Source of the DNA: a virus
Length of the DNA stretch: 64,000 bases
Virus record (IMG/VR): IMGVR_UViG_3300046115_000153
Coordinates: 1-64,000 of that record
Reading direction: 5' to 3' (one strand)
Positions 3,541-64,000 of the stretch are shown here, in pieces (within the stretch, counting starts at the first letter, position 1; each line of letters starts with the position of its first letter). The notes below the pieces were generated by a model. That model was given only the letters and a program-made list of their open reading frames with translations, was not told the DNA's origin and did not search any database. A program made the position numbers and the translations under genes.

Positions 3541-3770
3541 GCGCCCGCGACCAGCGCTGGGAGGGCGCGGTCGAAGAGGTCCTCGGCGGCTCGTTCACCG
3601 CCCAGTTGCACGACCTCGACGACACGCTTCCGCCCCATTCGGCCGAAATCTGGGCTGCTGCCGTGGACGACACCGACCGGGAGCTGATCCGGCCGGGAGC
3701 GCTGTTCTTCCTGACCGTCACCGAGACCGGCGCCGACCTCCGGTTCCGCCGAGTCGGGGACGCGCCGTGA
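3537..3770 (+). CDS. hypothetical protein (77 aa)
   Basis: GTGA overlap. Inner start of ORF 3372..3770. Confidence 0.6.
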   Translation: MSARDQRWEGAVEEVLGGSFTAQLHDLDDTLPPHSAEIWAAAVDDTDRELIRPGALFFLTVTETGADLRFRRVGDAP

Positions 3771-5547: not shown

Positions 5548-5756
5548 TGACTTGCGCCCGCGCTGGGTGCGATGCGCGACACGACAACAACTCGGACTAC
5601 TGCTTGGCGCACTGGCTCCTCGCCAGCTTCGAGAGTCGCCGCCCCGCGCTCGATCGCGCCGAGCCCGCCGTCTGCGTCCGCTGCTGCCACGAGATCGGCG
5701 GGACCGTCGAGCACACCGAGGACGGACCTGCCTGTGCGGGAGGGTGCACGACATGA
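5544..5756 (+). CDS. Cys-rich zinc-binding-like protein (70 aa)
   Basis: Track ORF with GTGATG start. Multiple C/H pairs. Confidence 0.6.
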   Translation: MMTCARAGCDARHDNNSDYCLAHWLLASFESRRPALDRAEPAVCVRCCHEIGGTVEHTEDGPACAGGCTT

Positions 5757-13528: not shown

Positions 13529-13882
13529 TCACACCAGATCGCCCCCCGCCATCAGCCTCAGCACCTCGGCGGCCAGCGCCGCACGGTGCTTCGACCGGGA
13601 CTTCGACTCCGCCTCGAGCAGGTCGAGCACCGCCGTCGCGCGTTCCACTTCGGCGATCGCGTCCTGCGGCTGGTGGGCGAACACGAACGTCGCGTCGCCG
13701 TCAGTGTCCCCGTAGGTGTCGGCGACGAGGTCACGGCCGCGGCCGTCGTCCACGAAGATCCGGCTTCCGCCGTGCGGGTAGACGTTCTGCCGCCACGGCC
13801 CGGGAGTGGCCCGTTCCGCGAGGCGGCGGCGGTCCAGCAGTCGTTCGCGCAGGGCACGGGCGAGGTCGGCGGGGTCAGGCAT
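13529..13882 (-). CDS. DUF6221-like protein (117 aa)
   Basis: Inner ATG of ORF 13529..13936, overlapping the upstream stop by 8 nt. The GPW...FVFAHQP..AIAEVERATAVLDLL pattern resembles that family (from memory). Confidence 0.55.
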   Translation of the reverse strand: MPDPADLARALRERLLDRRRLAERATPGPWRQNVYPHGGSRIFVDDGRGRDLVADTYGDTDGDATFVFAHQPQDAIAEVERATAVLDLLEAESKSRSKHRAALAAEVLRLMAGGDLV

Positions 13883-14615
13883 CGGCGGCCCACTCGGGCC
13901 GGCAGTCCGGGTGCCACGCCCAGATCGCCGCGACATGACGTAGCGCCCGCGCGCCCGCGTAGTTCACGTTCAGGTCGCCGTCGTTCGCCGCGAGCGCCAT
14001 CGACGCCACCAGCGACCGCAGCGCCGCGACACGGGCGAGGATCTCCGCCCCGCGCTTCTCGGCGTCACAGTCGCACTCGTCCGAGCCGGTACGCGCCGAA
14101 CCGCAGCTCTCGACCGCCTTCGGGCAGGAGTACCAGCAGTCGTCGCAGTGGTAATGCCCAGGGTTTCGACCGCGCTCCTCCTCCTCGCCGATCCTCGCCA
14201 GGACGAACGCGACGAACGGGTCGGCCTCGGAGAACCCGCACGCCCCCTTGCCCGCCGGGCGGGAGACGTCAGGCACGGCGACCGTCGCCGCCCCCCCGGA
14301 TTCGACCGGCCCCGGCGGCGCCAGCCAGTAGAACCGGGCCGTGCCGGCCGCGTCGGTCACCACGTGGCTGGCCACGTCCGCGCCGGTCCAGCCGCGGACC
14401 CGTTTCTCGTACTGCCACAGGTTGTGCACCCGCGACCGGGCGTCCGGACCGTCGTCCAACGCGACCGAGCCGGCACCCGGCCAGCCCGCACCCCACCCGC
14501 CGTCGGCCAGCCACCGGTCCACCGCCGCCGCCAGCGGCCGTTCCCCCGGCTTCGGCTTCCGGCGCCGCCCGCCGTCGGGACGGCCGTGCCGGTACGAGCC
14601 CGGGTCGACCGGCAC
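13875..14615 (-). CDS. hypothetical protein with C-terminal Cys-rich DUF6221-like domain (246 aa)
   Basis: Track ORF. Pattern FVLARIGEEEE...CDCDAEKRGAEILARVAALRSL...WAWHPD. Confidence 0.55.
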   Translation of the reverse strand: MPVDPGSYRHGRPDGGRRRKPKPGERPLAAAVDRWLADGGWGAGWPGAGSVALDDGPDARSRVHNLWQYEKRVRGWTGADVASHVVTDAAGTARFYWLAPPGPVESGGAATVAVPDVSRPAGKGACGFSEADPFVAFVLARIGEEEERGRNPGHYHCDDCWYSCPKAVESCGSARTGSDECDCDAEKRGAEILARVAALRSLVASMALAANDGDLNVNYAGARALRHVAAIWAWHPDCRPEWAADA

Positions 14616-14639: not shown

Positions 14640-15011
14640 TCACAGGATGCCCGCTTTCGACGCCGACACCAAGACCAGCAGCCACACGGACACGTTGCCC
14701 GACCAGCGCACACCGTAGGTCACGACCGCGTGAGCCCACGGCTTGGCGTGCCGGGCGAGGCGACGGCGGACCCGCTTCGTCAACCACGTCTCGACGACGT
14801 GGCAGCGGCGGCACAGAGGCTTGAGCACCCACAGCGGGACGCGGCCGGTCTCGCCGCTGAACTGGTAGGTCAGGTGGTTGAGCTGCAGCCGGTCTTTCCG
14901 GCGGCACCAGAAGCAGCGTTTGCGGGTGTACGGGGAAGCCCAGTAGCGGCGTTTCGTCTCCTCCCAGCCGGGGCCGTAGACACGGGCCGACCATTCGGCG
15001 AGAGTGCTCAC
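14640..15011 (-). CDS. HNH-like zinc-finger protein with C-terminal TM (123 aa)
   Basis: Track ORF. CFWC...LNHLTY...CRRCH pattern and a hydrophobic tail. Function is tentative. Confidence 0.45.
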   Translation of the reverse strand: MSTLAEWSARVYGPGWEETKRRYWASPYTRKRCFWCRRKDRLQLNHLTYQFSGETGRVPLWVLKPLCRRCHVVETWLTKRVRRRLARHAKPWAHAVVTYGVRWSGNVSVWLLVLVSASKAGIL

Positions 15012-15253
15012 CTTTTCAGCTCTATTCGCTTGGGCAGAAAAGCGTCCAGCGACGTGGGGACGTCCGCGACGCCGTCCTCCCAGTAGGCGTTGAAAAGCAT
15101 CGACGTCAGAGCGTGGTAGACGGCGCTCGACTCTTCCGTCGTCGGCACTGTCCGGCCGAAGACTTTCGTGACGGTCGCCGCTTCGGCGACCGTCATGGTC
15201 ACTGTCACCGTGGCCGGCTCGTCGCCGTCGAACGTGATGCTGTCGACCCTCAT
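15008..15253 (-). CDS. hypothetical protein (81 aa)
   Basis: Track ORF. ATGA-coupled to the downstream gene. Confidence 0.6.
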   Translation of the reverse strand: MRVDSITFDGDEPATVTVTMTVAEAATVTKVFGRTVPTTEESSAVYHALTSMLFNAYWEDGVADVPTSLDAFLPKRIELKR

Positions 15254-15281
15254 GGCCGCCCCTCCTCCGTCACTCTTCGTG

Positions 15282-15323
15282 TTGTCGCGCTTGTCGCGCT
15301 TGTCGTTGTCGCGCTTGTCGCGC
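15282..15323. repeat. four direct copies of TTGTCGCGC (plus a half copy), clt-like
   Basis: Copies at 15282-90, 15291-99, 15306-14 and 15315-23. An inverted GCGACAA lies at 15394-15400. The array is non-coding and begins 90 nt downstream of the traB-like stop. Confidence 0.75.
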
Positions 15324-15369
15324 CGAGCGAAAGCATTGCCGTAGCCGATCGTGTCGGCCGTCCGCGGCG

Positions 15370-15392
15370 CTTGTAGCGGGGGCCGCTACAAG
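15370..15392 (-). terminator. hairpin CTTGTAGCGG-ggg-CCGCTACAAG directly after the traB-like stop
   Basis: 10-bp perfect stem read from the sequence, 21 nt downstream of the stop at 15413. No clear U-tract. Confidence 0.5.
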
Positions 15393-15412
15393 TGCGACAA
15401 GCCCCGTACTGA

Positions 15413-17494
15413 CTACGGACAGTGGTCGGCGTGCACGTAGGGTCCGCGTTTTACCGGCTGCACGGCCCACCCCTCGGAAACACCCGCCTGAAACCAGTCG
15501 TTGACCGTCTGCCGGGACGTCCTGTGCCCCTCCGCCGCGAGACGCTGCCAAATGTCGGTGACGCTCGCACCGGCACGGCCCGCCTCCCGCAACAGCTCGA
15601 CCGTCCGCACGCGCGGATCTTTATCGGGAGGAGGACCGGGCGAATCCCCCGGCGTTTCCTTCGCCTGCGTCCATTCGGCCGCGAGAATCTCCTCGAAAGC
15701 CCTGTCCACGTCGGCCTGAGACGGCTCCGCCTCATTCCCCCCGGGCTTTTCGGCCGCTTCCCGCTCGACGCGCATCCGATCGGCTATCTCGTTCATCCGG
15801 GCCGTCGCCGCGCCCATCTCCGCGACCGGGTCGCCACCGGGACTCGCCGGCCCCGGGGACGGCGGGGCGGCGGCCGCCACCTCCGGGACGGCGGCGCCGT
15901 CGAGCATCCAAGCGATGTTCTCCGCGTCCCAGCGGGTCGTCCAGTCCTCCCCTGCGACGGCCGCCGACACCGGGTCCAGCGCCGGACGGCGGCCCGCCAC
16001 GGCGACCGCCACGTGGTCCACGGTCGACGGTGTCACCCGGTAGGTCTGCGACGGCTCCGGCCGCTCCGAATCCTGGGCGACCAGCGCGTTCCCCGGGTAG
16101 GGAATGTCCCGTGCGGTGATACCCGACGAGTTGTCGAACAGCTTGTGGATCTCCTCGTCCTTCGCTTTCATCATGACGAGCACCCCCGATTGGATACGCG
16201 CGTCTATCCCACCCAATGCGTCGCCGGTCGGGCGCAGCGACGTGCGCACAATGTTGATCCCCTCGCCCCGGAACTCCTCCTGGATGGTCAGCAGCAGCTC
16301 GGCGACCCGGACTCGCACCCGGTCGGTGACACCGGAACCGGTGATTCCCTTCCCCTCGTCGACAAGCACCGTGATCTGCGGCAACGTCGCCGACACGGGC
16401 AGCAGGTCGGTGTCGTGCTCCCGCTTCAGCCGGGCGTACTCAGGCGACGCCGCGCGCGCCCTGCCGATCCGTTCGATCATCTCGCACATGACCACGGCGC
16501 GCTCCGGGGTGCGGGTCACGAAATCAATCGCCGGCCTTTCCGCGCGGCCTTCCAACCACGGCCGGACGAAGTCGTCGAGCAGGTTTCCCTTGAAGTCGAC
16601 GACGCATATCAGCTCGTCGACCATCTCCGAAAGGCGCAGCGTGAACACCCGCATCAGGTTGGACTTGCCGCCCTTCTTCTGGCCGACGATCAGCACCGAG
16701 TCCTGTCTGGTGTTGACCAGCGTTTTCGAACTGTCGCGCTTCACCCCGACGTCGTAGTCGTCGTTGGCGCTGCGCATCGGGCAGTCCAACGGGTACGGGA
16801 CCGGGGAGGACAGCGCGTTGTGGGTGGACACGGCCAGCAGCACCCGGTCACGCCCCGCGCCCTCCGCCACGTCGATGCCGCAGCCCTCGGGCAGCCGGGC
16901 ACGGGAAGCCAGGTTCGCAGCCCGGGAAGCCACGTCGGACGCGGTCGCACCACCGCCGAGACGGGCCTCCACCGTGTACCCCGGCTCGTCGCAGTTAGGG
17001 GTGGACGGCCACGCCTCCACCGCCACCACCTGCGCCGACACGTGGCAGATCTCCCTGAGCAGACCCTCCCACTCCTGCGCCCGACGCTGCCTCGAAGTGA
17101 CGGCCAGCTGCGCCGTACGGCGCTCCCGCTCCGCCCGCTCCCGGCGGCCCGCCGCCGAACCCAGCAGACCCAGCACCAGCCCCCCGCCAGCCAAGACGCC
17201 GACCCCCTCCACCGACCACGGCGTACGGGCGGCGGCCCACGCCACCCAGCCCCCCGAGCAGGCGAAACACGCCGCGCGGAAGACCACGGCGAACCCCGTC
17301 AGGCCCGACCGGACGGCGGCCAGCGCGGCGGCCAGCCCCGCGGCGGCACCCGCGAAGGCCGGGTACCGCCAGTCCAGCCCGGTGACGTCGCCGAGAACAG
17401 CCAGCGCGAACGTGGTGACGGTCGCGTTGACCGTGGCCATCACCGGGCCGTGCCGCCACGACAAGTCGAACAGCTGCCACGGCACGGTCGTCAC
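15413..17494 (-). CDS. traB: TraB/TraSA-like FtsK/SpoIIIE-family DNA translocase (693 aa)
   Basis: GTG 17494 overlaps the upstream stop (GTGTGA), an inner start of ORF 15413..18043. N-terminal TM helices, Walker A GQKKGGKSN, Walker B-like ITVLVDEGKG and a C-terminal winged-helix-like tail. Confidence 0.8.
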   Translation of the reverse strand: MTTVPWQLFDLSWRHGPVMATVNATVTTFALAVLGDVTGLDWRYPAFAGAAAGLAAALAAVRSGLTGFAVVFRAACFACSGGWVAWAAARTPWSVEGVGVLAGGGLVLGLLGSAAGRRERAERERRTAQLAVTSRQRRAQEWEGLLREICHVSAQVVAVEAWPSTPNCDEPGYTVEARLGGGATASDVASRAANLASRARLPEGCGIDVAEGAGRDRVLLAVSTHNALSSPVPYPLDCPMRSANDDYDVGVKRDSSKTLVNTRQDSVLIVGQKKGGKSNLMRVFTLRLSEMVDELICVVDFKGNLLDDFVRPWLEGRAERPAIDFVTRTPERAVVMCEMIERIGRARAASPEYARLKREHDTDLLPVSATLPQITVLVDEGKGITGSGVTDRVRVRVAELLLTIQEEFRGEGINIVRTSLRPTGDALGGIDARIQSGVLVMMKAKDEEIHKLFDNSSGITARDIPYPGNALVAQDSERPEPSQTYRVTPSTVDHVAVAVAGRRPALDPVSAAVAGEDWTTRWDAENIAWMLDGAAVPEVAAAAPPSPGPASPGGDPVAEMGAATARMNEIADRMRVEREAAEKPGGNEAEPSQADVDRAFEEILAAEWTQAKETPGDSPGPPPDKDPRVRTVELLREAGRAGASVTDIWQRLAAEGHRTSRQTVNDWFQAGVSEGWAVQPVKRGPYVHADHCP

Positions 17495-18873
17495 ACGTTC
17501 CACAGCTTCTCCCCCGGCCGGGGGGCTTCCCGGCGGGCCAGGTCGGCCTCGTGGGCACGGCGGGCGGCCGGCTGGATCTCCTCGGCCGCCCTCGACGCCG
17601 CCGCGCCGACCTGCGCCATCGCGTACAGCAGGTCGGTGACGGACCGGGCGGCGGGCAGGTCGGACTGGGTCTTCACCGCCAGCGTTCTGATCGTCTTCGC
17701 GAAGTTGTCGGCCATCTTCGGCAGCTCGCCGAGGTGGGCGACGAACTCGAACATGTCGGCGGGCGCGTACTTCGCCATAGCGGCGAAAGCGTCCTCGAGG
17801 TGTTGGGCCGGTGCGAACTTGGACACGGGCACTCCTTCCGGGTTTCCGGCCGGGGCCGGCTGTGGCCGCGCGGCCGGGTTCGGCACGGGCGGAGACGGTG
17901 CCGGGGTCGCCGGCGGGGCGGGCTTGCCGAGGACCTTGCCGTTCGCGGCGGCGGGCTTGGCGACCTGCCCGGACACGCCGGGCCCGACACCGGCCGGGCT
18001 GCGGCGGCGCAACCGGCGCCACAGTGCGCGCAGAAGCCGCCACGCGGCGCGAAACAACTTCCGTACGGCCCGGCCCAAGCCCCGGCGGCCCATCGCCAGC
18101 GCGACGAACCCGGTGGCCAGCGCCCGGCGGGGCACGGTCCCGCCGGGCCGGCGGGCGACCGCGAACGCCGCACGTCCCCGACTGGCACGGGTGGCACGCC
18201 GGGCGTCGCCGTACGCGCCTCCGACAGCGCGGCCGGTGCGGCGCGCGGTACGGGCCAACGCACCTGTCGCGGCCCTCGCGGCCGTACCGGTACGCGACGG
18301 TGCACCGTGCCTGCGGCGGGCCGGTGCGAACGCGGCCGTACCGGTACGTGCGGCGGTACGGCGAAGGGCACGCGGCACGGGCGGGGTGCCGGTACGGCGA
18401 GAGGACGGTGCGATCGTGCGGTGGTCGGCGGTCGTACCGGTACGACCACCGCGGCCCTTGCCCGCGGCGCCCGCACCCGAACCGGTACCGACGGGACGGG
18501 GCCTACGCGCACCGGTACTACTCCCGGCGAGGGAGCGGGCAGGCACCGTACGGCCAGTACCGGCGACCCCGTACGGCGCCGCACCGGAACGGGCACGGCG
18601 TACGGCGCGGCGCTGGGCGACGCCCGCACCCGCGACGCCCGCACCCGCGACGGCGAGCCCTGTCAGCCCCGCCGCGGTGTAGGCGCCCGCACCCGCGACG
18701 ACGACCACGTCCGCCGCCAGCACCAGCAGCGGGCCGGCGGGGACGCGCGGGGTGCGGGGTGCGGGGTGCGGCGGCGGCACCCCGTCGGGCGGTGCGGGCA
18801 CGGCCCGCACCGGTACGGCCGGGGGTGCGGGCCGTGCGGTCACGGGTGCGGCGGCGGGCGGCGGGCGGGTCAC
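17491..18873 (-). CDS. Pro/Arg-rich membrane protein in the Spd position (460 aa)
   Basis: GTGA-coupled inner start (18873) of ORF 17491..18921. One TM region, RTGT repeats and a structured C-terminal 130 aa. Function is inferred from position only. Confidence 0.6.
   Translation of the reverse strand: MTRPPPAAAPVTARPAPPAVPVRAVPAPPDGVPPPHPAPRTPRVPAGPLLVLAADVVVVAGAGAYTAAGLTGLAVAGAGVAGAGVAQRRAVRRARSGAAPYGVAGTGRTVPARSLAGSSTGARRPRPVGTGSGAGAAGKGRGGRTGTTADHRTIAPSSRRTGTPPVPRALRRTAARTGTAAFAPARRRHGAPSRTGTAARAATGALARTARRTGRAVGGAYGDARRATRASRGRAAFAVARRPGGTVPRRALATGFVALAMGRRGLGRAVRKLFRAAWRLLRALWRRLRRRSPAGVGPGVSGQVAKPAAANGKVLGKPAPPATPAPSPPVPNPAARPQPAPAGNPEGVPVSKFAPAQHLEDAFAAMAKYAPADMFEFVAHLGELPKMADNFAKTIRTLAVKTQSDLPAARSVTDLLYAMAQVGAAASRAAEEIQPAARRAHEADLARREAPRPGEKLWNV
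18283..18444. repeat. three perfect 12-bp palindromes CGTACCGGTACG plus flanking half-sites
   Basis: Perfect copies at 18283-94, 18337-48 and 18433-44 (the last extends to the 16-bp GTCGTACCGGTACGAC). A half-site lies at 18385-96, with more GGTAC/GTACC between 18247 and 18566. Confidence 0.8.
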
Positions 18874-19094
18874 GGGGCTTCCCCCGCCCGGGCCGCGAAC
18901 AGGTCGGCTACCTGCCGCCACGTCGCCTCGCTGGCCGGGCGAGTGCCGGCGGCGGACTCGGCGTCACGTCGGACCGTCGGGCAGGCCACGGCGGCGGCGG
19001 TGTCGGCCGCGGTCAGGCCGGGCGCGGCGAGGTCGAGCACCCGCGCCAGCCGCTCGACCTTGGCGCGGCGCGCGGCGGCCTCGTGCCAGTTCAC
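18870..19094 (-). CDS. hypothetical protein (74 aa)
   Basis: GTGA overlaps at both ends. In frame with the C-terminus of ORF 18870..20180. Confidence 0.5.
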   Translation of the reverse strand: MNWHEAAARRAKVERLARVLDLAAPGLTAADTAAAVACPTVRRDAESAAGTRPASEATWRQVADLFAARAGEAP

Positions 19095-20038
19095 TTGGTA
19101 CCCGCCTTCATCTCGCCGACGTACCGGCGGGCGGTCGCCACCGACAGTCCGATCCCCGGCCCGAACTCCTTCGCGAGCGCGGTGTTGGAACGCGGGTCGT
19201 CGGCCGGCACCCGCGCGATCAGCTCGGCGAGCGTGGCGCGGCCCTTGCCCGCGGCCCGGGCAGGTGCCGCGGCCCGGGCGGGTGCCGCGCCAGCGGCGGG
19301 CGGGGCCGGCGGCACCCGAGGTGCCAGTGCCGCCGGGGGACGCACCTCGAGGTGCGCCGGTTCGGGCGCGAGCTCGCCGAGCCGGTACAGCACCCGCACC
19401 CGGTGCGGGGCCTTCCACCGCCACTTCCGGCCGCCGTACGCCTCCCGCACCGCCGACAGCGCCAGCAGCCGGGAACGTTCCCGGTGGAGCGCCTCCGCGT
19501 AGCCGCGGGTCTCCCACAGCACCATCCGCCGCCACATGACAGCGGTGGACAGCGGGGCCAGCAGCCAGCGTGCCCGACGCACCCGTTCCATCCGCGTCGG
19601 CGAACTCAGCTTGGCGTGCCGCCGCACCGTGTGCGCGCCCACCTCCACGGCGACCACCCACACCAGGGGCAGCGTCGCGTGGGCGACCCTGCCGAGCAAG
19701 GTCGGCTGCGGGGCGACGTTGAGGTAGACGGTGGTGCCGACCAGCGCCCACGGGACGGCCCGCAGCCAACGGGTCCGCATGTCCATCCGGGCGTGCAGGA
19801 TGTCCGTCGCCGTGAAGATCGCTATGCCGATGTCGACGCCGAGCGGCGCGGACCACGCCCACCAGCCGAACGACGGGGCGACAGCCGCCTGGACGGCGGC
19901 GAACGAGTTGGCGAACCCGACCAGGCCGAGGACGGCGGCGAGGACCGCGACGGTTTTCACCGCCCGCCGTTCGCCGTCGGTCAGGGGTGCTGGCGGGGCG
20001 GGGCCGGTGTCGCGGCCGGTGGCCTCGTGGTCGCTCAT
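19091..20038 (-). CDS. DUF2637-like membrane protein with C-terminal HTH (315 aa)
   Basis: Track ORF. Four TM segments with a PLGVDIGI motif. C-terminal region RATLAELIAR...LSVATARRYV. Confidence 0.7.
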   Translation of the reverse strand: MSDHEATGRDTGPAPPAPLTDGERRAVKTVAVLAAVLGLVGFANSFAAVQAAVAPSFGWWAWSAPLGVDIGIAIFTATDILHARMDMRTRWLRAVPWALVGTTVYLNVAPQPTLLGRVAHATLPLVWVVAVEVGAHTVRRHAKLSSPTRMERVRRARWLLAPLSTAVMWRRMVLWETRGYAEALHRERSRLLALSAVREAYGGRKWRWKAPHRVRVLYRLGELAPEPAHLEVRPPAALAPRVPPAPPAAGAAPARAAAPARAAGKGRATLAELIARVPADDPRSNTALAKEFGPGIGLSVATARRYVGEMKAGTK

Positions 20039-35595: not shown

Positions 35596-36354
35596 TCAAG
35601 CCTGGGATGTGCCGAACTTCCAGGCGTGCCGCATCCGTGGGCCGTAGGTGACCATCCGCTCGACGGTCACCACGTCGCCGACCGCGTTCCTTGCCGTCCG
35701 GAACACCTCGGAGACGGGCGCGCTCGGAGCCACCTCGAGCAGTCCGGCCTCTTCGGCGGTCGCGGCTCGGGCCATGACCTCGTCCTCGCCGCCCGTGATC
35801 TCGAAGTCGGTGTGCGACATCAGTTGCATGGCGTTGGTGGGCAGCAGTTCGGGATTCGTCAGCGCTGGGACTGCGGCGGCGACCGCGTCCGAGTAGTAGG
35901 AGGTGGCGATCTGGGCGGGCCGCCCGTCGGAGATCATGAGGCGTTGGCGCCACGCCACCTCTGTGCCGGCTTCGTAGCCGTAGGCGTGGGCGACGTCTGG
36001 CGGCGCCGGCATGCGTCCCGCGCCCGTTACGCGCTGGGTGCCGACCTTCCCGATTCGGCCGACGACGTCCTTCCACCGCTTGCGGGTGCCGTCCGGGCCG
36101 GGCAGGGTCATCTCGGTCATCCAGTTGACGACCGGTATCTCCTCGACTACGAAGGTCCCTCGTCCGGGCTTCGTCTCCACGAGGCCCCAGCTCTTGAGCA
36201 GGTCGAACGCGGCCTGTCCTGTCTGGAACGACGCCCTCCGTTCCGCCTTCAGGGTCGGGAGACTGGGGATCTGGTCCCCTGCCCGAAGCTCGCCTCTGGT
36301 GATCTTGTCTCGGATCTCTTCGGCGATTCGCTGGTACGTGTGCTGTGCCGCCAC
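35596..36354 (-). CDS. GntR-family (HutC/UTRA-type) transcriptional regulator (252 aa)
   Basis: Track ORF. N-terminal YQRIAEEIRDKITRGELRAGDQIPSLPTL...GLVETKPGRGTFV and a UTRA-like C-terminal half. Confidence 0.85.
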   Translation of the reverse strand: MAAQHTYQRIAEEIRDKITRGELRAGDQIPSLPTLKAERRASFQTGQAAFDLLKSWGLVETKPGRGTFVVEEIPVVNWMTEMTLPGPDGTRKRWKDVVGRIGKVGTQRVTGAGRMPAPPDVAHAYGYEAGTEVAWRQRLMISDGRPAQIATSYYSDAVAAAVPALTNPELLPTNAMQLMSHTDFEITGGEDEVMARAATAEEAGLLEVAPSAPVSEVFRTARNAVGDVVTVERMVTYGPRMRHAWKFGTSQA

Positions 36355-37483: not shown

Positions 37484-37528
37484 TGTCAGCGGTGGTGCCG
37501 GTACGCCCTACGCACCGTCGGACGTCAG

Positions 37529-37602
37529 CAGGGGCGACGGGACTCGAACCCGCAACCGCCGGTTTTGGAGACCGGTGCTCTAGCCAGTTGAGCCACACCC
37601 CT
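37529..37602 (-). tRNA. tRNA-Trp (anticodon CCA), 74 nt, no encoded CCA end
   Basis: Folded by hand. Acceptor AGGGGTG/CGCCCCT, anticodon arm CCGGT-CTCCAAA-ACCGG, T-arm GCGGG-TTCGAGT-CCCGT. Confidence 0.9.
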
Positions 37603-49168: not shown

Positions 49169-50149
49169 TCAGAGGCGGTCGTCGAGGCGCATTCGGCGGT
49201 GGGCGTTGCGCGCCCTGTCGCTGGCCGACGACGCGGCGTACCGGGCGAGCATCGCGTCGGAGTTCCACCCCATCAGACGCTTGAGATCTTGCGTGTTGCC
49301 GTCTCGGCGTTGCCAGTCGTCGGCGAACTTGTGGCGGAACAGGTGCGGGTGGACGTGGCCGATGCCGGCCTGCCGTGCACGACGCTTCAGCATCTGGCCG
49401 ACACCCGACGGGGAGAGCGCCCCCCGTCCCGCTTCGGCCAGCCACAGCTCGGGCATGTTCTTCGTTTGCTGCTTTCCACGGAGCCGCAGGTATTTCTCGA
49501 GCGCCTGCCCGGTTTTCGCGCCGAACGGGACGTAACGGTCCTTGCGCCCCTTGCCTTCGACGTGGATCTCGTCGCGCCCCATGTCGAGGTCGGTGACCTC
49601 GAGCCTGCCGATCTCTTCCCGCCGGCATCCTGTCGAGAACAGCAGCCGAATGATCGCGGTGTCGCGCACCTCGGTGAACCCGCGCCCCTTGCAGGCGGTG
49701 AACAGCGCGGCGATTTGCTCGTCGGGCATGACCGGCACCGTCTTCTCGGGGACGATCGGCTCTTTCAGCCCGCGCATCGGCGACCGGTCGATCACCTCGT
49801 CGAAGACGAGGTAGTTGCACCAGGCGCGCAGGTTGCGCCAGTGCTGGTGGACGTAGCTCGGCTTGTCGCCCTTCGCTCCTCGGTGGGCGAGGAACAGTTC
49901 GACGTGCGCCCGCCGTAACGCCTCGGCGTCGTCCGGCCGTAGGACGTCGTGGTCGCCCTCGGTCGGCAGTCGGCCGAGGAAGTCGACGAAGAGGTTGCCG
50001 CACCCGGTGTAGATCCGAATGGTGTTCTTCGCTACCTGCCTGCCGTCTACGTGGCGTATCCAGGAGCGGAGGTAGGACTCCCACGTGGCTTGCCAGGCGT
50101 CGCCCGAAGTGTCGGTCATGGGTCCGGGAGTGTAGACCATGATCGTCAA
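49169..50149 (-). CDS. int: tyrosine recombinase / phage integrase (326 aa; alternative ATG at 50119)
   Basis: Track ORF. Catalytic pattern GCRREE...HLFRHKF...MLARY. Confidence 0.9.
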   Translation of the reverse strand: MTIMVYTPGPMTDTSGDAWQATWESYLRSWIRHVDGRQVAKNTIRIYTGCGNLFVDFLGRLPTEGDHDVLRPDDAEALRRAHVELFLAHRGAKGDKPSYVHQHWRNLRAWCNYLVFDEVIDRSPMRGLKEPIVPEKTVPVMPDEQIAALFTACKGRGFTEVRDTAIIRLLFSTGCRREEIGRLEVTDLDMGRDEIHVEGKGRKDRYVPFGAKTGQALEKYLRLRGKQQTKNMPELWLAEAGRGALSPSGVGQMLKRRARQAGIGHVHPHLFRHKFADDWQRRDGNTQDLKRLMGWNSDAMLARYAASSASDRARNAHRRMRLDDRL

Positions 50150-50228
50150 GATAGATTTCTGTCGCTCAGACTTGCCGCCGCACCGAGCTCCGACGGAGGG
50201 GCAAAACGTGCTGGTAGTACTGTGTTTG

Positions 50229-50273
50229 TGGGCGCGGCAGGGATCGAACCTGCGACCACTCGCTTGTAAGGCG
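50229..50273 (-). other. att core: 3' half of a tRNA-Val(TAC)-like sequence (anticodon loop to discriminator), no 5' half
   Basis: The minus strand reads CCTTACAAGCGAG-TGGTC-GCAGGTTCGATCCCTGC-CGCGCCC-A. No matching GGGCGCG acceptor strand or D-arm lies upstream, and the anticodon stem pairs at only 3 of 5 positions. Confidence 0.7.
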
Positions 50274-50480
50274 GCGCACTAGCTCTGACTTGCGGTTTCG
50301 GGGGATTCACAGGCCCGTACCATGATCGTCTGTCTGCATGCGCGGTAGGTAGATTGCTCCCGCACCGATCTTCGGAACCGGCTCGGCGGGCCGCTGAGGC
50401 GCCCATCTGTACCGACCCAGCCAAGCACACGCCTCGACGACGGTCGCCGTACGTCCGTCCCTAGGTCGTCCGGACGCGAG

Positions 50481-50520
50481 GAAGCCGCCGGCCCGGGAGA
50501 GAGGGCGGGCCGGCGGCTTC
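50481..50520 (-). terminator. hairpin GAAGCCGCCGGCCCG-10nt-CGGGCCGGCGGCTTC after the holin gene
   Basis: 15-bp perfect stem, 20 nt downstream of the stop at 50540. Confidence 0.65.
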
Positions 50521-50539
50521 GTCTCGGGAGGGTCGGCGC

Positions 50540-50830
50540 CTAGCCGACGCCCTTCGGAACCTTCGTCTGGATCAGTCCCGTCGACCCGGTCAGTCCCAGC
50601 GGCTTCCACAGGTTCAGGTGGGACAGCGTCGCCACGGCGAACCCCTCGGCGGCGAACAGTACCGCCGACTTCCATTCGTAACCGGGGTCCGACTGTAGCT
50701 CGACGAGGATTCCGGTCGCGGCGGACAGTAGCGCGGTGACGCCGGCCTTGACCGCCTGCGGCGCGCGCCGTGCCGCGAACAGCGCGGTCAGCCACGGGAC
50801 GAAGGCCGTCACCGCGGCGGTGACCAGCAT
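50540..50830 (-). CDS. holin-like membrane protein (96 aa; alternative GTG at 50845)
   Basis: Inner start of ORF 50540..51742. Two to three TM segments. Immediately follows the endolysin gene. Confidence 0.6.
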   Translation of the reverse strand: MLVTAAVTAFVPWLTALFAARRAPQAVKAGVTALLSAATGILVELQSDPGYEWKSAVLFAAEGFAVATLSHLNLWKPLGLTGSTGLIQTKVPKGVG

Positions 50831-50847
50831 GTGCGAGAGTTCCACGA

Positions 50848-51876
50848 CTACTCCTGTTCCGGTACGGGTCCGGCGGCGGGCGGGTACTCGACGCCGAGGT
50901 GGTCCAGCAGGACGGCGAGCATGTGCTCGACGGGTGACGGGGCCATTTCGAGCACCTCGCTCATGACGAGGTCCGTCCCGGCGATGGTGTGCAGGGCGTC
51001 GACCTTGCCGCCGATGACCGCGATCTCCTGGCGTCCGGTGTGGACGGCGACGCCGACGAGGCCGAGCTGTTCGGCCAGTCGGACGAGTGCGGACTGGACG
51101 TCGCCGACCTTGTTGTAGGTGGCGCCGATGACGGCGCCGCCCTTCGGTGCCTGTCTGATCGCCGGTTCTACCAGGAAGACCTCGTCCCGCAGGGCCTCGA
51201 GCACCATCCGGGCGATGTCCTTCTTGTCCTGTTCGGTCACGGGCTCCTCCTTTACCGCGGAACGGCTGCCCAGCCACTCGCGCACGACACGGTTGGCGTC
51301 CGAACGGCCGGGGACGCCCGGCTGGCTGGCGGACGAGGTGTACTGCCGGGCGACGACGTACTCGCGCGGCCATCCCGGTGGCAGCGGCACCCGGTCGTCG
51401 CCGACAGGGTTGTAGTTGGCGACGTGCAGCCTGCGCCATCCTTCGGGCAGTGCCGCGGCGGCCAGCCCTGCCGGTCCGAGGTAGTAGGTACCGCTGTAGA
51501 CCACCCCGCCGTGGTAGCCGAGTTCGGCCGTCCGCTCGCAGAACCTGGCGGCGTGGGCGGCGGCCCGCCCCTCCTGTCCCGGCTCCTCGACGTCGAGGCA
51601 CACCCAGTCGCGCTCGCCGAGCCCGCCGTAGGCGCGCAGCGTGCGGTGGAAGTGCTCGGCCTCGGCCGCGCCCGACCAGCGCGACGGCCTGGCGAAGTGG
51701 TAGGCGCCCCGGCTCAGCCCGAGCGCGCCGGCCGCCGCCCACCAGACCCCGAACAGCGGGTTGACGTAGCCGGTCCCCTCGGACGCCTTGACGAGAATCC
51801 GGTCGTAGCCGGCCGCGGCGTAGGCGTCGAGGTCCAACCCTCGCTGGTAGACGGCGACGTCGGCGAACTCGGCCAT
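50848..51876 (-). CDS. endolysin, GH25 muramidase domain plus C-terminal domain (342 aa)
   Basis: ATGA-coupled inner start of ORF 50848..52260. DVAVYQRGLDLDAY...ILVKASEGTGYVNP...GAYHFARP. Confidence 0.85.
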   Translation of the reverse strand: MAEFADVAVYQRGLDLDAYAAAGYDRILVKASEGTGYVNPLFGVWWAAAGALGLSRGAYHFARPSRWSGAAEAEHFHRTLRAYGGLGERDWVCLDVEEPGQEGRAAAHAARFCERTAELGYHGGVVYSGTYYLGPAGLAAAALPEGWRRLHVANYNPVGDDRVPLPPGWPREYVVARQYTSSASQPGVPGRSDANRVVREWLGSRSAVKEEPVTEQDKKDIARMVLEALRDEVFLVEPAIRQAPKGGAVIGATYNKVGDVQSALVRLAEQLGLVGVAVHTGRQEIAVIGGKVDALHTIAGTDLVMSEVLEMAPSPVEHMLAVLLDHLGVEYPPAAGPVPEQE

Positions 51877-52385
51877 CAGCGGCCCCCGGGGGCGACGAAC
51901 CCGGCAGGGCAGTCGAGCCGTTCGGCGGTGTCCTGGGTGAGCGCCAGGAAGTCCGTCCGGCGCCGCGCGTTCGACTCCAGGTTCGCGGTTGCCTGGTCGA
52001 TGAACGCGACGGCGGCCCGCGAGTCGGGATCGGAGCTTTCCGCTAGCAGTGGGCGCAGCCCCCGGTAGAGGTCGACCGTGTTGCCCGACGAGGCGGCCGA
52101 TTGGGCGAGCAGCGCGTTCAGGTTGCAGGTGTTGGCCCGGATGTCGGCCTGCGCTACCGCCGCGTCGTGCTGGGTGCTGTTCAGCCCGAACCCGAGGACG
52201 GCCAGGGTGGCGGTGAGCGCGACGTCCAGAGCGACCGACGTGCAGGTGGCGACGATCCACAGGGTTTTACGGCGGACGATCGCGTTTCCTTGGACGACGG
52301 CGGCGTCCAAGGCGGCGACGGACTCCCGGTTTCCTTCGAGCGCCTTCTCCATCCGCGCGAGCATCCCGGCGAGGTCGTCAGCCAT
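51876..52385 (-). CDS. membrane protein of the lysis cassette (169 aa)
   Basis: Track ORF. Central TM segment. Confidence 0.6.
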   Translation of the reverse strand: MADDLAGMLARMEKALEGNRESVAALDAAVVQGNAIVRRKTLWIVATCTSVALDVALTATLAVLGFGLNSTQHDAAVAQADIRANTCNLNALLAQSAASSGNTVDLYRGLRPLLAESSDPDSRAAVAFIDQATANLESNARRRTDFLALTQDTAERLDCPAGFVAPGGR

Positions 52386-52587
52386 CGGTTTCCCCCATCT
52401 CGGCCATCTGGTGGCGGATCAGTTCGATCAGGGCGTCGATGTCGTCGACGTTTCTCGTGACCCGGTCACGGAGCCCTTTGACCAGCGCCAGCGCTTCCTT
52501 GCCGTATTGGACTTCCCGGCGTAGCGCCGCGTCCCCGCCGGGCGAGACGTAGAGCTTCTCCCCGTCCCCGTCTTCGCCCGCTGTCAT
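52378..52587 (-). CDS. hypothetical protein (69 aa)
   Basis: ATGA-coupled inner start of ORF 52378..53151. Confidence 0.5.
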   Translation of the reverse strand: MTAGEDGDGEKLYVSPGGDAALRREVQYGKEALALVKGLRDRVTRNVDDIDALIELIRHQMAEMGETDG

Positions 52588-52907
52588 GCGCCCCCCCGGT
52601 GCAGGAATTCCCGCAGCAGGTCTTGGGTGGCACGCATCCCGTCGTTCGCTCGCACCAGTGTCGGTCCCGTCTCTCGTAGTTCTCTGGTCAGTTCCACCTG
52701 GGCGGCACGCAGGTCGGCGACTGTGGCGTCCCGGACGGCGATCTCCCGTTCGTAGCTGGCACGCAGGTCGGCGACCCGTTCGGCCGCCGCCTGTTTCTGG
52801 TCGTCGAGCGCCCAGCCGGGGACGACTTTGCGGAGCAGGACCAGTGCGAGGAGCGCGCCGAAGGCTGGTACTCCGAGGACGACGTTGGTCCAGTCGGTGA
52901 GGCTCAT
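52584..52907 (-). CDS. N-terminal-TM plus coiled-coil protein (107 aa), holin or spanin-like by position
   Basis: Track ORF. Confidence 0.55.
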   Translation of the reverse strand: MSLTDWTNVVLGVPAFGALLALVLLRKVVPGWALDDQKQAAAERVADLRASYEREIAVRDATVADLRAAQVELTRELRETGPTLVRANDGMRATQDLLREFLHRGGA

Positions 52908-52928
52908 GCCGTCCGCGTCCCGGGTATT

Positions 52929-54050
52929 TCACGCACCGAACAGTTCCAGGTACTTGCGGGCGGCGTTCGGGTTCTGCCCGTTCATGATCCCCATCCGCTG
53001 GGCGGTGTCCTCGTAATAGCATTCCCCTGCCATGACGCCTTTGCTCTGGGCGTATTTGAATTCGCCGTGCATGTTGGCGACGAACGTGGGGTTGTCCCCG
53101 CCGTGGTTCCCTCCGGCCACGTTGCCGGAGTTGCACGCCCACTCGGGGCACAGGAACTGCTTGCCTTCCGAGATCGCCAGCTCTATGTACCAGCGGACGC
53201 CGTTGACTTCCCGTGCTTCGACGTGGAAGTCTTTGCGGCCGCCGGAGGTCGAGGTACCGCCGAAGCTGGGCGGGAAGTGGTCGTAGTAGTCGACGCCGAT
53301 GAAGTCGACGTAGTCCTTGCCGGGGTAGATGTTGCGCGGGTCGTTGGCTGGGAAAGCCCCCGCCCCGAAGCCGGGGCTGTCGTGGCCGTTCGGCACCCAG
53401 CCGAACAGCGCGTCTTCGTAGACGGACCGTACGACGGTGACGAACCGGCGGAACGTGTTCACGTATTCGGCGTAGTTCCGGTAGTTCTGCGAGCTGCCGG
53501 AAGGACCGGACCAGTAGTGCAGTTTGAAATGGTTCGCCTCCCAGCCGGGGGAGAAGATCGGCCGGGCGAACTTCTGCGCCTCACGGGCCGCCCAGTTCTG
53601 GCCGAACTTCCGCCATTCCGTGTCGTAGTCGCCGCGTGCCGCCGCGGCGTAGCTGAACCCGCCGGACGGGAAGAACGGCATCTGCACGACCAGTACCACC
53701 GTCTTGTCGGTCCACACGCCCTGCGGCAGCGAGGTGGCCGCCACCATCGGGCTCCAGCCGCCGTAGCGGGGCGGGTAGGCGAGCGCGATCCCGCACTTCC
53801 GTTTGCGCCACGCCCCGAACGCTTCGGCGCCGGTCTGCGTGTTGTTGTTCGGGTTCCCCCCGGACGGCCAGAACCCCGCCGGCTGCGGGTCAGGGTCGGG
53901 TTCCGGGTCGAGATCGGGCGGCTGGCCCGTCTCTTCGAGCGCGGCGACCCGGGCGGCCAGCGCGGCCCGTTCCCGGTCGGCGGTGTCGGCCCGCGTGTGC
54001 ATCGCGGCGACCGCCAGCGCGAACTCCTCCGAGCTCGGTACTGAAACCAT
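52929..54050 (-). CDS. GH26-like glycoside hydrolase with N-terminal coiled-coil and Pro/Asp linker (373 aa)
   Basis: Track ORF. GWEANHFKLHYWSG and IYPGKDYVDFIGVDYYDH resemble GH26 signature regions (from memory). Confidence 0.55.
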   Translation of the reverse strand: MVSVPSSEEFALAVAAMHTRADTADRERAALAARVAALEETGQPPDLDPEPDPDPQPAGFWPSGGNPNNNTQTGAEAFGAWRKRKCGIALAYPPRYGGWSPMVAATSLPQGVWTDKTVVLVVQMPFFPSGGFSYAAAARGDYDTEWRKFGQNWAAREAQKFARPIFSPGWEANHFKLHYWSGPSGSSQNYRNYAEYVNTFRRFVTVVRSVYEDALFGWVPNGHDSPGFGAGAFPANDPRNIYPGKDYVDFIGVDYYDHFPPSFGGTSTSGGRKDFHVEAREVNGVRWYIELAISEGKQFLCPEWACNSGNVAGGNHGGDNPTFVANMHGEFKYAQSKGVMAGECYYEDTAQRMGIMNGQNPNAARKYLELFGA

Positions 54051-54059
54051 GACCTCTCC

Positions 54060-54368
54060 TCACACTGCGATCTTGTCGACGACGAACGCGTCGCCGCCGC
54101 GTACCCGGCCGCCCTGCCGGCCTGACCCGCTGGACGTGGTGACCAGCACTTTCACCACGTCGTTCACCGCCGGGACCGCGATGTTGTAGCTGTTCGAGTA
54201 GCGGACCCCGGTCGCGACCGCCGCCCCGCCGGTCGTCTGCGCCAGATCCACCGACTTGGGCGGGCCGGCGTTGACGGCGACGACGACCCACGTCCGCACC
54301 GAGACGCCGCCGCCCTCCCGTTCGACGACCGTGGCCGCGAGCTCCTCCGCGACACCCATCTCAGGCAC
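54060..54368 (-). CDS. hypothetical tail-region protein (102 aa)
   Basis: Track ORF. Confidence 0.55.
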   Translation of the reverse strand: MPEMGVAEELAATVVEREGGGVSVRTWVVVAVNAGPPKSVDLAQTTGGAAVATGVRYSNSYNIAVPAVNDVVKVLVTTSSGSGRQGGRVRGGDAFVVDKIAV

Positions 54369-55488
54369 CTCCCGATCGCCGTATCCGGCAGTTGAGCTGG
54401 ATCTCCCCCGCGTAGGACAGCGGCACGGAGACCGACTGGACGACGGCGGTGTCGTCGAACCCGCTGCGGAGCCGGGTTATGTGGATCACGTCGCCGGGGT
54501 CGATCGCGTGGTTGGGGACGCCGGACACGGTGACGACCTCGGTCGCGCCGGAGAGCTGCCGCAACCGGGCGTCGGCGGCCCGCTGCGCCTGGTCGGTGGT
54601 GGTGACCAGCGGGTTGGTCTCCCACACCGGGCGGGGTCCGTACGGCCCGTAGTAGTAGGTGGGGCTCTGCGGGTCGTCGTCTATCGCGACCGCCCGTACC
54701 GGCGCGTTGGAGCTGTTCTCGCCGGTGACGACGACGGCGTTCGCCCCGCCGGCCGACCGCGAGTAGCGCCGCTCGAGTTTGGTCGCCGGGTTCGTCGGCC
54801 CCTCCGTGAACTGCCACGACACGGGCTGCGCGCTGGGGTCTGGCACGTCCCGGACGACTAGCCGGCCGTCCCGGTCGAAGTAGGTTTCAGCACCCACCGC
54901 CTCGGCGAAGGCCTGCACGCCGTCTGCCCACCGGTCGGCCTTCTCTTCGAGCACGTGCGGCGGGAAGACGTCGGCGGCCGACAGCAGGTCGACGACGGTC
55001 AGGCCGGGGTAGCCGTCTTCGGCGAGGTTCCGGATGGCGGTGGCCGCGTCGGTGCCGGTGGCGGTCGTCCACGGGACGAGCAGTTTGGCGTCGCCGAGCC
55101 TGCCGGCCCGGTCTTCCCCGGACAGTGAGACGGCGATCCCGTCGGCGGTGTCGACCAGGTCGGAGTCGGTGATGGTGAACACGCCTTGCGGTACGAGTTC
55201 GCTGGTGCCGTCCGGGTAGGTGATCCCGGCGTGGATGACGAGTTCGTTGCCGTAGATGTCCAGCGGGGTGCGTTGTCGGCTGGTGGGGATCAGCCCGTCG
55301 GGGAGGCCGACGACTTCGACCGAGCAGGTGCGTAGGACGTCGGCGGTGGCGTCGGCGCGGACGTCGCCGCCGACGACGCGTAGTCCCGAAGCGACGGTGA
55401 CACCGGAGCGGGTGATTTCTACGGAGGCGGCGAACTGGTAGCTGGCGGTGACCGACCGTTTGTACCGGTCGGAGACGTCGTAGGCCAT
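54361..55488 (-). CDS. minor tail protein (DUF5047-like, 375 aa)
   Basis: Track ORF. The N-terminal ...VSDRYKRSV..S......V.......L.V.GG.V..D... pattern is typical of actinophage tail proteins (from memory). Confidence 0.6.
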   Translation of the reverse strand: MAYDVSDRYKRSVTASYQFAASVEITRSGVTVASGLRVVGGDVRADATADVLRTCSVEVVGLPDGLIPTSRQRTPLDIYGNELVIHAGITYPDGTSELVPQGVFTITDSDLVDTADGIAVSLSGEDRAGRLGDAKLLVPWTTATGTDAATAIRNLAEDGYPGLTVVDLLSAADVFPPHVLEEKADRWADGVQAFAEAVGAETYFDRDGRLVVRDVPDPSAQPVSWQFTEGPTNPATKLERRYSRSAGGANAVVVTGENSSNAPVRAVAIDDDPQSPTYYYGPYGPRPVWETNPLVTTTDQAQRAADARLRQLSGATEVVTVSGVPNHAIDPGDVIHITRLRSGFDDTAVVQSVSVPLSYAGEIQLNCRIRRSGGA

Positions 55489-55494
55489 CGCGTG

Positions 55495-63800: not shown

Positions 63801-64000
63801 CCGCCGACGATGCCGGTGATGTTCAGCGTGGCGTAGGCCGCGACCAGCGTGATCACGGCCATGCGGTTGTCGGCGAGGAACCCGGTCGTCGTCGACAGCG
63901 CCGTCGCCAGGGCGTTGAAACCGGCGACCGCCGCACCGACACCCAGCCTGGCGAGGCCGGCGGCGATGTCGTCCAGGTGGAGGTCCTGGGCGATGTCGAC
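60848..64000 (-). CDS. tail tape measure protein, N-terminus beyond the right edge (more than 1050 aa)
   Basis: ORF 60848..63862, and the same frame stays open to base 64000. TM-rich N-region and coiled segments. Duplicated GEWVI.A.AA...LN.G...VVPR.AAGGPV.G.A.GG motif. Confidence 0.85.
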   Translation of the reverse strand, partial: VDIAQDLHLDDIAAGLARLGVGAAVAGFNALATALSTTTGFLADNRMAVITLVAAYATLNITGIVGGLAALGAAAGGAAAAGVTRLTDAVVMAAATITRTFGNGSLARGMLVFGAAAAVATGSIYAVVSAFDDVEKAAARVAALESQVGEILGAIDPSVPASYDAARVKLDEMAAANQRATAANQGGIDAIHQTVLGLAAYDYAVEQVNAQNATMQSHTNALAEIFGLTGAQVQTLAQRFGLDLTTGLQDAADGSAGLETKMRLAIGAMLEAAPATLGTQQQMNLLTFDVKAADEALAGLTTTFDLLTGRLVSGAMSANNWQLSMIELASRASLARDANGNLSTSLDTSSEAGLRNQNMLLGLVQQLEKDAQAQYNATVATEGADAAAEAYNDTIAAGVTDLLNFGAQAGISEGDIRALIGEMNLVPDSIEVPVTTPGLDIANASVSELRRQLALMPRNIDITIRQNIEREYINRTSPGSPASTHYATGGQVTGPGGPTSDQVPIMASNGEWVISADAARRYGPRAMAALNEGRALVVPRMAAGGPVRGLAVGGPATGTAGSTATGATGAIQLVEQGGQTLAEVYSQTAAGVDQTTDALRDVVPRLWEADRSTGYLATTTGLADQTTGLYRETLTGATADLGLATLAADTQTLATGENTVANTENLLGLQLLGVETDLNNVERSPLTLLSTQTQTLATQEGTLADTENLAGQLLIGAEADLNNTERYPLTLLATQTQTLATQEETLANTERLLGMQLIGVETDLNVGERMPAVLVGTQTQTLATQESTLTEAEHLAGLTLLGTQWDLASGVQLPTLTAATDTASESTTAYSATLDQATADLVETTGAVTETTTAVQFYIDTSAQVVPLVQTEFTTPGLAEAQGSVDTYIGSLNSVPTSITTTITTAYVTTGAPPAGSGFARGGMVTGPGTSTSDSILAALSAGEWVIRAQAAAKQGPYRMALLNAGLADVVPRFAAGGPVPGFATGGMVRPANYTPFTAVSVINVDIGDTTVTVNGAGPDAQVIGRVVRTEVDGALSDVVRLIRSGTGRR
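61547..62065. repeat. four tandem 129-bp (43-aa) repeats inside the tape measure gene
   Basis: TQTQTLATQE recurs at residues 645, 688 and 731 of the track ORF, with a diverged copy at 602-611. The period is exactly 43 aa. Confidence 0.75.

Follow-up and report, generated by a model that had tools for sequence, protein, structure and literature searches.

A candidate clt at the 3′ end of a TraB/FtsK-like translocase gene in a phage-like element

Just beyond the stop codon of a traB-like gene, in the 64,000-bp stretch of viral DNA that was analysed as a whole (hereafter the window), lie a short tandem array, a hairpin and an inverted copy of the array word. [quoted passage not shown] To our knowledge, few clt sites have been defined experimentally, all of them in Streptomyces plasmids. 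In the literature, clt loci are described as short, element-specific direct repeats plus inverted repeats beside tra, which TraB binds via its winged helix (PMC4447253, PMC3583192, PMC4170104). The first-pass annotation of this DNA had proposed that the site follows the pattern of the Streptomyces plasmids with a different repeat word. The layout indeed fits and the word differs, but the element that carries it appears phage-like, rather than a Streptomyces plasmid.

Anatomy of the repeat site

The site and its neighbouring genes comprise the following features:

15008–15253, minus strand: 81-aa gene of phrog_16055, function unassigned, from the family that also follows traB in the related locus L001
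15282–15323, minus strand: direct array, four copies of GCGCGACAA plus the half unit CGACAA on the gene strand
15324–15369, no strand: 46-nt spacer from array to hairpin, repeat-free and partly similar to the spacer of L001
15370–15392, no strand: hairpin with a 10-bp stem and a 3-nt loop, from RNA and DNA fold predictions
15394–15402, plus strand: inverted copy of the word, GCGACAAGC on the plus strand and TTGTCGC on the gene strand
15413–17494, minus strand: TraB/Tra-like FtsK-family dsDNA translocase of 693 aa, with an alternative GTG start at 17503
15413–15616, minus strand: winged-helix-coding part of the translocase gene, with the putative recognition helix SRQTVNDWFQAGV
17491–17826, minus strand: 111-aa gene with no family assigned, translationally coupled to the translocase gene through a GTGA overlap
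19091–20038, minus strand: DUF2637 membrane protein gene, Spd-like by position only

On the plus strand, the array reads TTGTCGCGC TTGTCGCGC TTGTCG TTGTCGCGC TTGTCGCGC, with the full units starting at 15282, 15291, 15306 and 15315 and the half unit occupying 15300–15305. The units abut each other, giving a start-to-start spacing of 9, 15 (9+6) and 9 bp. All four copies and the half copy thus sit where the first-pass annotation had placed them. The inverted GCGACAA that it had marked at 15394–15400 is likewise present, and extends to GCGACAAGC, which over 9 nt is the reverse complement of the array sequence GCTTGTCGC. Given how often the 7-mer occurs in the background, the chance of such an extra copy in the remaining ~117 nt of the intergenic region is roughly 0.01. 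The hairpin, also claimed earlier, consists of CTTGTAGCGG (15370–15379), the loop GGG and CCGCTACAAG (15383–15392), with ten pairs predicted to form. Its two arms are the repeat word with one mismatch (GCGCTTGTAGCG versus GCGCTTGTCGCG), making up an inverted pair of degenerate sites. Overall, the site holds 4.5 direct words, two degenerate words in the hairpin and one inverted word, spanning 15282–15402.

The site occupies a 159-nt gap between two minus-strand genes, in a region of 64–67% GC. The translocase stop codon is at 15413–15415 and the inverted copy begins 12 nt past it; the distance of 21 nt given previously holds for the hairpin but not for the start of the region. At the other end, the array lies 28 nt from the ATG (15253) of the next minus-strand gene, with a GGAGG ribosome-binding site in between. 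In agreement with the earlier description, the gap is non-coding. Two open reading frames that run across the repeats, at 15113–15376 on the plus strand and 15270–15551 on the minus strand, were rejected as genes: one of them overlaps the true flanking genes or runs antisense to them, the second begins inside traB, the repeat translates into the low-complexity sequence ARQARQ, and L001 has no homologous gene call. Neither a sigma-70-like promoter nor an Rfam family was detected in the region, no run of T follows the hairpin, and a scan for intrinsic terminators gave no call at the hairpin.

The word is confined to this spot of the window. There are four exact copies of TTGTCGCGC in the 64,000 bp, all inside the array, compared to a mean of 1.46 copies, placed anywhere, in shuffled sequences. 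With one mismatch allowed, 24 matches were found versus ~40 expected, so that the word is under-represented elsewhere and is not a dispersed genome word in the window; within this stretch, the count that the first-pass annotation had called for came out in line with its reading. The 7-mer core GCGACAA occurs ten times, close to the shuffle expectation, and five of these ten copies lie within 119 bp of the site. This distribution differs from that of KOPS, the 8-bp word read by the C-terminal winged helix (gamma) of FtsK, which is likewise a hexameric dsDNA pump whose motor is loaded by this reading: KOPS is dispersed and strand-skewed over the chromosome, whereas the window word is clustered at one site and does not show a KOPS-like distribution.

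Tandem repeats as such are no rarity in this DNA. Analysis of the window (71% GC) using TRF revealed 85 arrays, about eight of them scoring >60; short tandem duplications are thus common and the array alone is unremarkable. What stands above chance is the combination of the non-coding position, the inverted copies and the recurrence of the same layout in relatives. When IMG/VR was scanned for exact matches to a pair of adjacent units (GCGACAAGCGCGACAA), more than 119 were obtained, all in unrelated contigs of 43–58% GC and mostly with only two copies.

The adjoining translocase

Scans of the 693-aa protein against Pfam (including FtsK_SpoIIIE, PF01580) and NCBIfam gave no match, and a sequence search of the PDB yielded only FtsK at an E-value of 0.03. 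Its identity was settled by the combination of PHROGs, structure prediction and profile comparison. The protein matches phrog_31069, ‘FtsK/SpoIIIE-like’, with an E-value of 5e-84. Matches found by tblastn include ‘DNA translocase FtsK’ genes of Streptomyces, Frankia, Thermobifida and Nocardiopsis plasmids, in addition to the actinophages Hiyaa, Spocter, Galactica, Keanu and P1312 and the plasmid-phage ZL12.

The AlphaFold2 model (mean pLDDT 77) consists of three hydrophobic helices (residues 20–92), a long helix (98–153) and an alpha/beta domain (157–530), followed by a disordered linker and a confidently predicted three-helix domain with a wing. Structural similarity search using Foldseek revealed that the alpha/beta domain most resembles the FtsK motor (PDB 6t8b), with an E-value of 2.7e-16 and a TM-score of 0.66, ahead of TcpA, EccC and HerA. 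The motor carries the Walker A motif GQKKGGKS and the Walker B motif VLVDE. Modelled alone, the C-terminal domain reached a pLDDT of 90 with the same three helices and wing, and its structural matches are winged-helix DNA-binding domains (Fur, linker histone and FtsK gamma, PDB 2ve8), with TM-scores of 0.6–0.73 and weak E-values of at least 6e-3.

Comparison of the family profile with pIJ101 Tra by hhalign gave a probability of 97.7% and an E-value of 1.7e-12. The protein also aligns with the pZL12 tra-region protein pZL12.71c (5e-32), including the N-terminal region. The clt of pIJ101 has three 5-bp repeats located away from tra, a layout that does not suit the repeat statistic, and this plasmid therefore served for the protein comparison only and not as a positive control. 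Altogether, the product of 15413–17494 is a TraB/Tra-type translocase by architecture and homology, which bears out the label traB-like given to the gene beforehand, with the winged helix at its C-terminus being a prediction. Surveys of AICEs or of clt sites that rely on PF01580 would miss elements with a translocase of this clade, even though comparisons of fold and profile identify it unambiguously.

The 111-aa gene that overlaps the translocase gene has a good ribosome-binding site and a GTG start, and lies directly upstream of traB in L001, L002, L003, L005 and L006 as well. A mechanically called open reading frame of 476 aa that contains it is probably an over-extension. The DUF2637 family is also found upstream of traB in the Frankia locus L003. 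The sole GntR gene of the window (35596–36354) is 20 kb from the translocase, compared to ~5 kb upstream in L002, L003, L004 and L007. On the far side of the repeats, beyond the 81-aa gene, the minus strand at 13529–14615 and 14640–15011 holds two adjacent DUF6221 paralogues, one of them also scoring as Ead/Ea22-like, together with an HNH-endonuclease-like gene, and the gene order is the same in L001.

Repeat clusters after the stop codon in related loci

A protein search defined a close clade of translocases, P0002 to P0009 (78–33% identity), and their contigs were examined along with the Frankia plasmid pFQ12 (AY027524). As a repeat score we pooled 8-mers in 200-bp segments and ranked these within each locus. 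In all nine close-clade loci, the segment that follows the translocase stop falls within the top 0–5.6% of its own locus. The clusters begin at the stop or a few bases past it, and each word is essentially confined to that spot. They usually consist of one or more inverted words, a GC hairpin and a direct array, built from a word that is specific to the locus:

L001: ATGGTGCAAGATCTTGCGACGC twice plus TTGCGACA
L002: TGTTGCAAGATCTTGCGTC twice
L003 (Frankia CiP3): GACGCAA five times plus one inverted copy
pFQ12: TGACGCAA five times, the first overlapping the stop codon, then a GC hairpin and TTGCGTCA twice
L004: CAGTAGTCGTCGTC, a hairpin and GACGACGACTAC(TG) twice
L006: TTGCGACA(A) five times, in both orientations
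L007: CCCGGACA six to eight times

The perfect palindrome CAAGATCTTG is carried by L001, L002, L005 and L006. An exact 10-mer, ACGGAACGTC, was also observed ~60–170 nt after the translocase stop in L001 (~3697–3706), L002 (8202–8211) and L003 (7088–7097); it is followed by GATCGG in L001 and L002, and the window has only a degenerate form, GCGGACGGCC...GATCGG.

The two Frankia loci, pFQ12 and CiP3, encode translocases of the same clade as that of the window, with 33–46% identity. Similar to the window, they have five direct words, a GC hairpin and one or more inverted words, starting at or just after the stop, but they differ in the word, (T)GACGCAA, and in the order, with the direct array first and the inverted copies last. 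The records carry no annotation of this cluster and no sign that it has been characterised.

Some more distant loci share the layout. Directly after the stop of L021, whose protein is 28% identical, CTGTCGC occurs twice, followed by a hairpin, another CTGTCGC and five copies of GCGACAG, which is the layout of the window with a word one base off. In L167 and L168, the stop codon of the translocase gene is followed by CCTGCACACC in both orientations. In the Thermobifida phage P1312 (L010, KT021004), words of the type GTGTCAC/GTCACA lie directly after the FtsK-like gene (5590–5750), and the same words are found in its IMG/VR relatives L023, L024 and L027. The word is near TGACACC, the word footprinted in the clt of pWTY27 (PMC3583192). 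The next open reading frame of P1312 is full of DNA repeats of the GGTCCGG type.

A post-stop cluster was not found in most of the distant IMG/VR homologues (25–35% identity), nor in Hiyaa and ZL12, so the position is clade-typical and not universal. In those that lack it, the strongest clusters lie upstream of traB. In many of the IMG/VR loci L011–L040, the strongest 7-mer cluster is located ~2.9–3.6 kb before the translocase stop and is made of locus-specific words, such as CCGCTAC ×9, GCGAACC ×7, GGGGTGA ×7, GGTGTCA ×6, CCGTACG ×13–15 and GCCGGTA ×13. L015 has nine words of the GCGACA type (six of the nine being GCGACAG) 4.5 kb upstream and none after the stop. Scans with the family alignment gave three loci in representative genomes, all of them distant, and seven in metagenomes.

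The gene downstream of the repeats varies by locus, being NUDIX-like, ParA, a peptidase M48 or unassigned, and in L002 and L005 it is convergent with the repeats still present. The constant neighbour across loci is the translocase, rather than ParA or Rep.

The window protein and its closest relative, P0002 of L001, are 78% identical overall, with 87% in the motor, 71% in the N-terminus, 68% in the linker and 51% in the winged helix. In the DNA alignment of the two loci, the diverged block covers the winged-helix-coding region and the intergenic repeats, and both flanks are conserved; the words after the stop are GCGACAA in the window and TTGCGAC plus the palindrome in L001. The block looks like the outcome of a cassette exchange or of fast co-evolution. 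Because the coding region and the repeats are adjacent, the joint divergence could also reflect one recombination patch, not necessarily a functional coupling. Across the loci, recognition helices with RQAV go with TTGCG(A/T)C words, and those with RQT(V/I), in the window and L021, go with (T/C)TGTCGC; this pairing is suggestive only, given the small sample and with physical linkage as a confounder. The window and L001 nonetheless amount to a natural swap of specificity, in which the motors are 87% and the winged helices 51% identical and the words differ, providing an experimental handle on how winged helices of the TraB type read DNA.

The gene module also has repeats on its other side. Between the DUF2637 and 111-aa genes, 17827–19090 (minus strand) is a repeat-dense stretch of 1.26 kb, especially at 18283–18817, for which the relatives have no gene call at the equivalent place. 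It contains the 12-bp palindrome CGTACCGGTACG, perfect at 18283, 18337 and 18433 and with five near copies, in addition to about eight copies of CCGCACC at 18687–18851. The GC3 signal changes frame across the stretch, and the long open reading frame that spans it (17491–18921) places the palindrome on CGT and GGT codons, which lowers the GC3 of that frame. This region could be a second cis site, and its arrangement of palindromes resembles the sps palindromes bound by SpdA2 (PMC4170104). It is denser than the post-stop array and could even be the real target of the translocase. L001 retains CGTACCGGTACG upstream of traB with an identical 54-bp spacing; since this palindrome is conserved between the two loci, it is the post-stop array whose change accompanies that of the winged helix.

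Reading of the site and the element that carries it

We consider it probable, on the in-silico evidence, that the repeat cluster and hairpin form a clt, the loading site for the adjacent TraB/FtsK-like dsDNA translocase. The TraB/Tra-type identity of the neighbouring gene, the confinement of the word, the post-stop clusters of the relatives including pFQ12, the linkage to traB and the joint divergence of winged helix and word all favour this proposal, which the first-pass annotation had made from the window itself, and every in-silico test able to count against it came out favourable.

The array might instead be an operator for another DNA-binding protein (the element's GntR-family repressor, the 111-aa protein coupled to the translocase or the 81-aa protein encoded downstream) that controls the downstream operon or read-through from traB, with the hairpin as the traB terminator. 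Its end 28 nt before the next ATG, the palindrome CAAGATCTTG of L001, L002, L005 and L006, which is typical of operators of dimeric HTH proteins, and the position of the hairpin ~20 nt after the translocase stop would all suit such a role. Yet the repeats track the 3′ end of traB, whichever family the downstream gene belongs to and even where it is convergent, and this speaks against a promoter or operator; in L002 and L005, the convergent orientation means that the repeats cannot be the promoter of the next gene. The first word of pFQ12 even overlaps the traB stop codon. Moreover, the word has no further copy at the GntR gene or in other intergenic regions of the window. With a sigma-70-like promoter and a T-tailed terminator both undetected, we regard an operator as unlikely.

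Another reading takes the array as a non-functional product of slippage in a non-coding gap, beside a plain terminating hairpin. Exactly abutting units are what replication slippage would give, and several of the 85 TRF arrays of the window score equally or higher. Slippage leaves unexplained, however, why an inverted copy and both hairpin arms carry the same word, and why unrelated words recur in the same post-stop layout in every close relative and several distant ones, and we find it improbable. The least credible of the three, to which we give very little weight, makes the repeats iterons or centromere-like sites at which an extrachromosomal phage-plasmid would initiate replication or be partitioned. 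The element may indeed be extrachromosomal, as its integrase lies mid-genome with phage genes on both sides, and a ParA gene follows the repeat region in L004 and is nearby in L007. Iterons, however, are typically 17–22 bp long, compared to words of 7–9 bp here, and a region of 64–67% GC has no AT-rich stretch for unwinding. No rep or par gene adjoins the site in the window, where a primase/helicase-like gene is 6 kb away, and what stays constant beside the repeats is the translocase, not ParA or Rep.

As a candidate clt, the site has a close counterpart in pWTY27, whose clt has four 7-bp direct repeats TGACACC plus inverted repeats and extends from the 3′ end of tra into ~160 bp of non-coding DNA (PMC3583192). 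That word is confined to the clt, gives a footprint with the FtsK-like Tra protein and is required for transfer (PMC3583192). The window shares with this TraA/clt system a cluster of direct and inverted words at the 3′ end of the tra gene and the confinement of the word, but differs in the word itself (GCGACAA, or GCGCGACAA as the 9-bp unit), in units that abut without spacers and in being known from sequence alone; besides, pWTY27 is a theta plasmid of 14 kb and the window element is phage-like. The pSVH1 word is GACCCGGA. The clts of pJV1 and pSVH1 are made of element-specific direct repeats of 8–9 bp (TRS), which the TraB winged helix recognises, plus imperfect inverted repeats, that of pJV1 having nine 9-bp repeats CCGCACA[C/G][C/G] (PMC4447253, PMC3583192, PMC4170104). 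Compared to these two systems, the translocase of the window is too diverged for PF01580 to score.

We propose that the translocase, presumably membrane-anchored, would assemble into a hexameric ring, from which the C-terminal winged helices extend on a flexible linker of ~95 residues and may each read one 7–9-bp word, GCGACAA(GC). Counting 4.5 abutting direct copies, one inverted copy and a degenerate copy in each hairpin arm, several sites would be available within ~120 bp, on which several winged helices of one or two rings could engage simultaneously, and the motor would thereby assemble on this DNA alone. By analogy with pSVH1, pJV1 and pWTY27, the array most likely nucleates the hexamer via the winged helices. 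ATP hydrolysis would then pump the unprocessed double-stranded element across a septum or hyphal contact. Physical binding, ring assembly and pumping direction, as well as any role in transfer for this phage-like element, are inferred.

The gene content indicates such an element. The window encodes a tape-measure protein (60848–63862), a DUF5047/Phage-tail_3 protein, a GH25 lysin and a tyrosine integrase (49169–50149), together with a YqaJ exonuclease, a Bro-N protein, a DnaN clamp, two DNA methylases, a DEAD helicase, a DnaB_N-DUF3987 protein and a tRNA-Trp. The phage genes lie within 49169–63862 and 21486–44548, and the genes just downstream of the repeats have PHROG matches too. Every gene identified from ~13.5 kb on, those of the translocase module among them, lies on the minus strand. 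The lysis/tail genes and the early genes are separated by the integrase, which is the order of an unintegrated phage genome. With its tape-measure, tail, lysin and integrase genes, the element resembles a phage or phage-plasmid and is neither a plain plasmid nor an AICE. No close relative was found among GenBank phages, and a blastn search with 13.5–21.4 kb returned nothing.

A precedent is the plasmid-phage pZL12 (PMC4170104, PMC3583192, PMC4487206), which is reported to conjugate as a plasmid (PMC3583192, PMC4170104). Similar to the window element, pZL12/phiZL12, Hiyaa and P1312 are tailed-phage genomes with a homologous TraB/FtsK-like translocase. P1312 has a post-stop cluster, the one of GTGTCAC words, whereas ZL12 and Hiyaa do not, and no defined clt was found for any of the three in the literature searched.

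The locus and its relatives would extend in two directions the rule that a translocase gene has a short-word array and an inverted repeat at its 3′ end: to a diverged, Pfam-invisible translocase clade in Frankia plasmids and uncultured actinomycete elements, and to a genome with phage tail and lysis genes. More tentatively, and with considerable doubt on our part, a tailed temperate phage or phage-plasmid of ~100 kb might keep a complete TraB–clt pair with Spd-like partners as a second, capsid-independent route by which its double-stranded genome is pumped between hyphal compartments or mating mycelia. Winged helix and array together would then act as a specificity cassette, fast-evolving and exchangeable, that stops related co-resident elements from mobilising each other. 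Should phage genomes spread via TraB and a clt, this would have a bearing on the movement of temperate phages through mycelial bacteria.

Two further features of the element were observed. The tRNA-Trp (CCA) gene is at 37528–37602 on the minus strand, in the early region near the GntR gene, and the tape-measure gene contains about three copies of a 129-bp tandem repeat at 61643–62053 (72–74% matches).
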